Virus record (IMG/VR): IMGVR_UViG_3300028833_000066
Length of the DNA stretch: 64,000 bases
Direction: 5' to 3' (one strand)
Origin: a virus
Taxonomy: Duplodnaviria > Caudoviricetes
Position 1 is the first letter of the stretch, and the number at the start of each line of letters is the position of its first letter. Below, piece after piece: positions 6,955 to 26,174 of the stretch. Below the pieces are notes generated by a model, which worked only from the letters and a program-made list of their open reading frames with translations, was not told the DNA's origin and did no database searches. The translations under genes and the position numbers were made by a program.

Positions 6955-7269
6955 TTATTTTCCTCCAAATTTATTTTGTTCATAATAATGCCAGGCATCA
7001 TTATTCCATAATTTTTTAACGTTTAAATTTTTACTACAAAAATTTTGAATAATGTCATTAATAATTGTATACATATCAGATGCTCTAGTAATCCAATTCT
7101 CTTTAGTTATTTTACCACCAGCGGCTTCAAAAGCATCTATATAATACTATTCACCCCAAATTAATTTATCAGCCATATAAGTCATTCCTTCGACGATTCC
7201 CTATTCATATTTTCCGCAGGCTGTTTCTGGATTGTGATATAATCGTTCAAATATATCAAAGTAACTCAT
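6955..7269 (-). CDS. hypothetical protein (code 15, two in-frame TAGs)
   Basis: MSYFDIFERLYHNPETACGKYE(TAG)GIVEGMTYMADKL...; fills the gap exactly. Confidence 0.6.
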
Positions 7270-21879: not shown

Positions 21880-22515
21880 ATACTCAGGCCACACTCGGGT
21901 GGTCTGTACTTAGACTATTTACCTTCGGCCTTGCCGCTCAAACATTCCCACCGCTCGCGTCCTCAATAGTCCTAGGTAGATAAACATCTACTCATTATAA
22001 TATCAATAGGATTTGTTTTGCCGCGTACGATCGGCTGGCCGAGTATTAAGTCTAATAGCCGCTCAAGACTCCTATTGATTTTTAATAAAGGCTCAAAGTA
22101 CTTACTTCTTCGTTCGTGAAGAGGCCATTAGGCGAGCCTTTGTATGCCCCGAAGGTACGCTTGCTCGTCAGCAGAGGCGTCGGCAGCTCATATATTGTGG
22201 CGTAAAACCCCTAACTAGCCATCATCGCGTCCAGCTGGACCACATGTTTTCTGCCTTGAACCCGTGCTTTCAGGTAGGCAAGGATTATAATCTTGTTTAG
22301 GGAACATCCCATGGTCAAGAGAAACCATAGATGGAGAATCATAATCTAGAAGACAGTACCCTTACGGCGTGCTGTTGATTCTCCTTCTGGTGGACCCGGG
22401 GCATTTCACCCAGCCCATAGACGGTTTTTAGACTCGCTGGTCATGGCTTACCGAGGTACTGACGGCCGATCGCCCTCTGTCGCGCCAAGACTGTGCTCAT
22501 TAAACACAACCCTAA

Positions 22516-22589
22516 TGGAGCGCCATAACAGACTTGAACTGTCACCGACTGCTTGGAAGGCAGCCGTGCTACCATTACACCAATGGCGC
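22516..22589 (-). tRNA. trnG: tRNA-Gly(UCC)
   Basis: gctgc-CTTCCAA-gcagt; U73-CCA. Confidence 0.92.
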
Positions 22590-22662
22590 CGGCGTGGCTT
22601 CACGTCACCACAACGACACATGGGTTCTTGCGCTGGCTAACCTCTTTTGTTCTAAAAGCCAC

Positions 22663-25726: not shown

Positions 25727-26113
25727 CTAGGGCGCTGGGACTCGAACCCAGACTACCTCCTTCAGAGGGATATAACGGTTTTCTTACTACTCCATATTAC
25801 TATGGCCGCCATAATGCGTTGTAGTCTGGACTATGTTTTTACCTTGCCATAATGGTTTAGGTATGTCCTATATAGTCTCTACACGTTTATAAATAATTGG
25901 CTGTTTATCAAACTCCACTTAGCTACAGCGTTATACGAACTCGCCACTATCAAATTGGCTTCCACAGTCTGTCGTAGCACCAATTATTTAATTTAGCTCG
26001 GCGTTGTCCTAGTAGGATATTCGCCGAATTAGGGACAATTCACACTAGAACTTTCGTATCTAGGTGTCCAATTATTTTAAGAGACCGGTGTTCTGCCATT
26101 GAACTACGCCCCA
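25727..26113 (-). tRNA. amber suppressor tRNA(CUA), Gln-type identity, split by a group I intron (exon 1 26080-26113, exon 2 25727-25782)
   Basis: Joined exons give cggt-CTCT|AAA-accg (anticodon CUA); U1-A72 and G73; D-arm gttc/gaac; T-arm ctggg-TTCGAGT-cccag. Confidence 0.85.
25783..26079 (-). mobile_element. group I intron (IC3-like, 297 nt) in suppressor tRNA
   Basis: Clear paralogue of the Leu intron (ctaattcggcgaa, acgccgagctaaattaaata, gtgtagagactatata, catagtccagactacaacgc, gagtagtaag); IGS GGA pairs with exon UCU. Confidence 0.85.
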
Positions 26114-26145
26114 TTAAAGTGAGGTTTCCCTCACTTTCTATATAT

Positions 26146-26174
26146 ATTATATCAAATTTTTTATAGAAAGTCAA
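26146..26174 (-). promoter_or_regulatory. sigma70-type promoter TTGACT-N17-TATAAT directly upstream of the suppressor tRNA
   Basis: Consensus hexamers with extended -10 TG; leader hairpin at 26116-26137. Confidence 0.75.

Follow-up and report, generated by a model that had tools for sequence, protein, structure and literature searches.

Does a phage that reads TAG as a sense codon control that reading by RNA splicing? The question is raised by an amber-suppressor tRNA gene which, according to the original prediction, acquires its anticodon CUA only after a group I intron has been removed, so that translation of TAG-rich late genes would depend on a ribozyme. The gene lies in a 64,000-nt stretch of phage DNA (hereafter, the window), with all of its parts on the minus strand (Table 1). 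A JGI contig, possibly from the same sample, was identical over the locus at 7204/7204 bases, which makes an assembly artefact unlikely; the closest sister fragment (L141, 98%) stops short of the suppressor gene. Leader hairpins similar to the one found here were present upstream of many related genes. Directly 3' of the tRNA lies a conserved structured element of ~140 nt (25718-25578, minus strand), for which Rfam gave no match and which also occurs in L205, at the same position, and in L236, L402 and L427.

Table 1 Positions of the parts of the split suppressor tRNA gene, and of a related split tRNA gene, in the window.
Feature	Position	Strand	Description
Promoter TTGACT-17-TG-TATAAT	26174-26146	(-)	11/12 consensus matches; host-type sigma-70/sigma-A, extended -10 (TG)
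Leader hairpin	26116..26137	(-)	Immediately 5' of the tRNA; read from sequence
tRNA exon 1	26113-26080	(-)	Acceptor 5' strand (U1), D arm, anticodon arm to U35; end = CCGGTCTCT
Group I intron, 297 nt, tRNA position 35/36	26079-25783	(-)	Rfam RF00028; without ORF
Internal guide GGA	26067..26069	(-)	P1 with U33-C34-U35; UU precedes GGA (possible P10 with A36-A37)
Structured insert in P6, ~80 nt	25979-25901	(-)	Without known family
Catalytic core	25829..25877	(-)	P7 = 25877-25873 with 25833-25829; P3 3' strand 25868-25864; P8
tRNA exon 2	25782-25727	(-)	Begins AAAACCG; A36 onward, extra arm, T arm, A72, G73; CCA not encoded
Extra arm, 23 nt, second anticodon-like hairpin	25774-25752	(-)	Loop CU-CUG-AA at 25767-25761
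tRNA-Leu(UAA) split at 34/35, same intron family	23205-22795, intron 23170-22846 (325 nt)	(-)	Guide GAG

Reading through TAG fused fragments into long genes and raised the coding cover between 36 and 64 kb from 0.49 to 0.94, compared with 0.52 when TGA was read through. Among the recoded genes are those for PhoH and for proteins of the tail, virion and neck, and CAG is rare in them. At 60 aligned TAG positions of the window, the homologues had Gln in 21 cases and a stop in 9, and no other residue occurred more than six times. Based on this comparison, the phage genome reads TAG as Gln (code 15). A host among the Bacillota is suggested by the promoters, which are sigma-A-like, and by matches of PhoH to Clostridium and Bacillus phages. 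The window also holds two adjoining genes of the xanthine/uracil permease family (5784-3200, minus strand).

In the joined exons, a stem of four pairs and a C27/U43 mismatch carries the 7-nt loop CU-CUA-AA. A scan for this joined-exon sequence recovered an intronless allele (L015) in a TAG-recoded phage of 166.6 kb, which equals the predicted spliced tRNA at 89/90 bases, with an identical exon 1 and a single difference in exon 2. This near-twin fixes the insertion point between U35 and A36, in good agreement with the claim that excision of the 297-nt intron rebuilds a CUA loop. Judged from these sequences, the CUA anticodon of the window allele is formed only through splicing, which the intron is predicted to catalyze.

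It had been cautioned that the guide could instead pair with the UCU ending at U33, which would leave a non-functional loop. If so, or if splicing did not occur at all, the gene would be a pseudogene copy, and an intact suppressor encoded elsewhere by the phage, or by the host, would do the work. The alternative pairing is real, as GGA fits U31-C32-U33 equally well and can extend to G30, and a secondary-structure model gives a marginal P1 for the window copy in either register. Pairing of U35 with the guide G at 26069, however, supplies the U.G pair of a group I P1, and the wider comparison disfavored the U33 register throughout. Model energies were compared over the 12 distinct suppressor genes with such introns. 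U35 was favored in 12/12. Its register had the lower energy in all 11 genes that permit both (−6.8 vs −4.2 kcal/mol in the window), and L193, which has A31, fits the U35 register alone. The gap of 2.6 kcal/mol in the window became 2.5 in a full-precursor run, from which only differences were used since the P5 loop of that model is impossible. An inward extension of P1 was available to the U35 register in 9/12 genes and to the U33 register in 0/12, and three of the genes have a GGAG guide, with which the U35 register gains one more pair, its fourth. All 12 suppressor introns carry UU-GGA, vs mostly GAG in the Leu(UAA) copies. The Lys(CUU) introns of the family, inserted at the same 35/36 site, use the same guide with an A31, so that U33 cannot pair. 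The window copy lacks the P1 extension and can reach four contiguous pairs in the U33 register, and some mis-splicing is therefore possible.

The split gene had been expected to escape standard scans and to be the only CUA tRNA in the window, and both expectations were borne out. ARAGORN in standard mode reported 22 tRNAs in the window and missed the suppressor, as did Rfam at its gathering score, whereas the intron mode of ARAGORN miscalled the gene as Leu(AAG). The split tRNA-Leu(UAA) of the window is likewise missed by standard ARAGORN. No second CUA stem-loop was found anywhere in the 64 kb. This is only the visible part of the genome, which leaves room for an intact suppressor elsewhere, but the sole recognizable CUA tRNA of a complete code-15 relative (G007, 160.9 kb) is again an intron-split gene. 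With exons that match an intact allele at 89/90 bases, core pairs that have been retained and the register evidence above, we consider a pseudogene very improbable.

Several other elements of the tRNA island were observed. The island holds a ROOL RNA (30871-30287, 346 bits), a drum RNA (31359-31266) and a sub-threshold match to cow-rumen-3 (22512-22389), all on the minus strand, and a large amount of further unclassified structured sequence is found at 21880-22600 and 33600-35500. In a tRNA-like gene at 27118-26957 (minus strand), which received no Rfam call, the acceptor, D-like and T arms enclose a long structured central part. The tRNA-Thr(UGU) gene (26880-26691, minus strand) has a 117-nt insert in its anticodon that is closed by a terminal stem and is not group I-like; L370 has the insert at the same position with 89% conservation, and a Thr(TGT) intron is known from Lak phages as well. 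Among the genes of the phage is one for an RNA ligase (17182-15944).

With Rfam, the suppressor intron matched Intron_gpI (RF00028) at 46 bits (E 3.8e-10), just below the gathering score of 50, and its close homologues scored 50.5-57 bits. Over 78 homologues, pairing was preserved in P7 (98%), P8 (100%), P9 (97%) and P3 (84%), compared with 1-42% for slid controls. The P3 pairs include several pair types, and the P7 helix of the window intron is the family consensus. The terminal (omega) G at 25783 was a G in 106/106 homologues, although the 3'-end search pattern demanded G. As far as they can be read from sequence, the defining group I features, namely the U.G pair of P1, the omega G and the P3-P4-P6-P7-P8 core, are present. 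The GAAA-capped P2, the short P5 and a distance of just 4 nt from P7 to P3 would fit subgroup IC3, a tentative assignment based on these features. The introns of tRNA-Leu(UAA) at 34/35 in cyanobacteria and plastids, of Azoarcus tRNA-Ile and of tRNA-fMet belong to IC3, and the window intron shares with them the compact core and the anticodon-loop site. The 3-bp P1 with U.G, the capped P2, the lack of P7.1/7.2 and the terminal G are likewise found in bacterial and plastid tRNA introns, which differ from the window intron in that the latter sits in a phage stop-codon suppressor, at 35/36, with the guide GGA. Introns at 35/36 are reportedly also present in tRNA-Asn and tRNA-Asp of Patescibacteria.

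Counted without deduplication, the intron family occupied position 34/35 in 64 Leu(UAA) loci and position 35/36 in 16 Lys(CUU) loci. The contigs with Lys(CUU) introns (L030, L034, L042, L045, L048, L104-L106 and others) have a bacterial appearance and no sign of TAG recoding. A Leu-family intron was also observed in a CAA-anticodon tRNA (L024:7667 region, L080), in which C would take the place of U at the 5' splice site. The Leu and suppressor target sites are alike, CUU/AAAA and UCU/AAAA, with the guide changed from GAG to GGA to match. In the tree, the nearest cores to the window intron are Leu introns (83%), and P4-P6 including the P6 insert shares 88% identity with the Leu intron of another phage across 188 nt, which suggests exchange between the tRNA sites. 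A single origin of the suppressor introns was not rejected (p-AU 0.28), so that repeated transfer from Leu to suppressor is no more than possible. The P6 insert is 94% identical to that of Leu(UAA) intron L018 (L018:1457-1539) and 79% identical to a free-standing copy just 5' of a tRNA-Thr (L022:8115-8033). It matched no Rfam family and nothing in a GenBank phage search, and lies distant from P1; most suppressor introns lack it. As an unclassified RNA module, it has a 3' end resembling a motif at 33917-33893 of the window. A separate GenBank phage search brought up nothing except the promoter and one weak match of Lak type, and a scan of bacterial genomes, for which the pattern was too loose, gave chance matches only.

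As to mobility, the window intron has no ORF, and hence no homing endonuclease of its own, but HNH ORFs lie inside the sister introns L125 and L166. ORFs in suppressor introns (L125:559-1224, L166:4378-4872 and L003:4260-4643, of which the first two are the HNH ORFs) have in-frame TAG, so that such a nuclease would need the suppressor made by splicing of its own intron. A free-standing HNH gene with one in-frame TAG (28284-27688, minus strand) is located 1.6 kb upstream of the suppressor gene and is a possible helper of the intron in trans.

Is the intron then a switch? The original prediction held that splicing delays TAG decoding or acts as a GTP checkpoint. In this reading, the intron would be domesticated, and slow or GTP/Mg-dependent splicing would delay TAG read-through and with it the late genes. 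What stands is that the CUA anticodon exists only after splicing, and that this holds beyond the window, since the split gene is the sole recognizable suppressor in complete relative G007 and such introns occur in 12 distinct suppressor genes. The delay or checkpoint fares less well. An intron-blind scan of the tRNA family through exon 2 returned 13/20 intronless and 7/20 intron-split alleles, and the five intronless-allele records tested all had in-frame TAG in conserved genes; like the near-twin L015, most alleles in recoded phages thus do without the intron. The same intron family resides in Leu(UAA). The promoter, of the strong host type that serves the TAG-poor region, would suit a switch and does match the consensus as predicted, but it is hardly the gene's own, as ~17 promoters of nearly identical sequence, this one included, lie between 1.4 and 36 kb of the window. 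Intron presence and an adjacent promoter were not linked (3/12 vs 2/15, Fisher p 0.63). The P6 insert might be seen as an unexplained structured element through which splicing is controlled; against this, it is absent from most suppressor introns and present in a Leu intron. Cellular GTP greatly exceeds the typical group I Km, which counts against GTP sensing. The pocket of the Azoarcus intron, moreover, is filled by guanosine even when none has been added (PMC13168695). A precedent for allosteric control does exist in the c-di-GMP-II riboswitch-controlled intron of Clostridium difficile, the single example cited for a group I intron that serves as a sensor (PMC3984707). There, an adjoining aptamer moves the 5' splice site within an mRNA, whereas Rfam searches up to E 10 gave no known aptamer at the window intron. 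We therefore consider a splicing-gated code switch improbable. The intronless alleles, the Leu(UAA) family, the HNH genes and the generic promoter fit a tolerated mobile element and probably no switch, in keeping with the usual view of group I introns as neutral (PMC3984707). A short, incidental splicing delay is possible. About one third of the suppressor alleles have the intron, and in phage-type loci it is mainly confined to two tRNA types, for which selection could equally be an explanation.

The spliced tRNA has a further peculiarity, a long extra arm whose loop, CU-CUG-AA, presents the Gln anticodon CUG and which Rfam aligned as the anticodon arm of a tRNA 3' half. Among 55 distinct amber tRNAs with an extra arm of at least 18 nt, collected by scans that left the arm unspecified, 47 have a 7-nt loop centered on YUG (CUG in 40, UUG in 7, both Gln anticodons). 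Shuffles gave such a loop 2.3 times, and 7 times at most. The second-arm stem varies, with C-G (27), G-C (19) or U-A (4) as its second pair. Its loop lies 9 nt ahead of the T stem in 39/50 cases, with a 5' spacer of 3 to 12; an ordinary anticodon arm has the same 9-nt distance to its T arm. When folded freely, the window tRNA favors a slipped pairing of the arm that closes the 7-nt loop. The arm is not that of a type II tRNA, as the D stem is of type I with 4 bp and the arm bears the conserved YU-YUG-A loop, which is absent from type II-like amber tRNAs in the same scan. UCA (opal) tRNAs were also found with a second arm, at the same 9-nt spacing, bearing the Trp anticodon CCA; the search presupposed the CCA loop and so shows their existence, not their frequency. 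Examples of these opal tRNAs are L038, L112, L122, L480, L486 and L495, among others. Short-arm suppressors exist as well (L056, L125, L193), and intron and arm are not coupled, because 4/12 intron-bearing suppressor genes lack the arm.

The second arm may have a role in aminoacylation. The identity elements for Gln (U1-A72, G3-C70, G73, G10-C25 and U35) are all present by comparison with PMC9976931, with G.U as pair 2-71. GlnRS reads both U35 and G36 (PMC9976931), and the decoding arm, with its CUA, has no G36. On these grounds we lean, with modest confidence, towards a second arm that helps the host synthetase to charge the tRNA, with the CUA arm left to decode. The existence of short-arm suppressors and the slipped pairing in the free fold of the window tRNA count against such a role. 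The arm might instead be a relic of a tRNA-Gln duplication, or the tRNA might be bifunctional and read both CAG and UAG. Indeed, the 3' part that starts with the second stem equals a normal short-loop Gln tRNA half, and the window has a tRNA-Gln(UUG) but none for Gln(CUG). A relic, however, would not be expected to preserve a CUG or UUG loop next to stems and acceptor arms that have diverged, the scarcity of CAG in recoded genes argues against a second decoding function, and the CCA arm of the UCA tRNAs, which matches the amino acid to be loaded, counts against these readings as well. We therefore find a relic or a bifunctional tRNA doubtful, though it deserves weight. More speculative still, and in our view unlikely, is a two-anticodon tRNA that switches fold, showing its Gln or Trp arm to the synthetase and its stop-reading arm to the ribosome, with the intron separating both jobs. 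Before splicing, the precursor has a complete Gln arm but an interrupted CUA arm, so it could accumulate, perhaps charged, until splicing releases the suppressor.

Taken together, the locus is likely to be a Gln amber suppressor with a passenger mobile intron, whose charging is probably aided by the second arm. The gene would be the phage's own suppressor tRNA, invaded at 35/36 by a mobile group I intron that spread through homing nucleases or through recombination between look-alike targets. Host RNA polymerase would transcribe it from the generic strong promoter, which can be located in the sequence; the timing is presumed. GGA would then pair with U33-C34-U35, guanosine would attack after U35, and the terminal G would mark the 3' site, so that ligation yields CU-CUA-AA; the junction follows from the intronless allele and the catalysis is predicted from the conserved core. 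Host enzymes would presumably trim the ends and add CCA. Charging with Gln would proceed via the acceptor, G10-C25 and U35 elements, probably with help from the second arm, whose anatomy is observed and whose function is proposed. Finally, the CUA arm would decode UAG in structural and other genes, for which the recoding is supported by comparison. Splicing would thus be obligatory yet constitutive for the window allele, and the intron a tolerated passenger.

The gene resembles the tRNA-Sup(CUA) of other code-15 phages (crAss-like, Lak and others) in its amber anticodon, Gln-type acceptor stem and TAG-rich structural genes. It differs from those in PMC7886860 and bioRxiv 10.1101/2021.08.26.457843, as far as the accessible parts of these sources describe them, in its intron and second Gln arm. 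Introns in tRNA genes of code-15 phages are known from Lak phages, where they were termed enigmatic and not assigned to group I; Thr(TGT) and Tyr(GTA) were named, not a suppressor (PMC6784885). Theta ribozymes located by suppressor tRNAs also link a ribozyme to suppressor maturation, and their action has been suggested to trigger a code switch (PMC10879173). These are small HDV-like ribozymes that cleave the 3' trailer outside the tRNA, whereas here a splicing ribozyme lies within the anticodon. A literature search of incomplete coverage found no paper describing group I introns in phage tRNA genes, two-anticodon tRNAs, or an intron-split or two-arm suppressor tRNA.

According to a 2014 review, phage group I introns had been seen only in protein genes (PMC3984707); contrary to that statement, they are common in tRNA genes of phage-type contigs. 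Splicing as a switch would be of the greatest importance if true, and is the least supported part of the picture. A survey found a suppressor tRNA in only 40% of TAG-recoded phage genomes and suspected hidden forms. Intron splitting offers a concrete reason for the apparent absence of the suppressor in many recoded phages, because 7/20 alleles of the family are split and the window copy is missed by tRNA finders. The second arm is more surprising than the intron and lends itself better to testing. It could serve as a design rule for engineered suppressors, and it provides a testable answer to how host synthetases may charge the suppressor tRNAs of phages.
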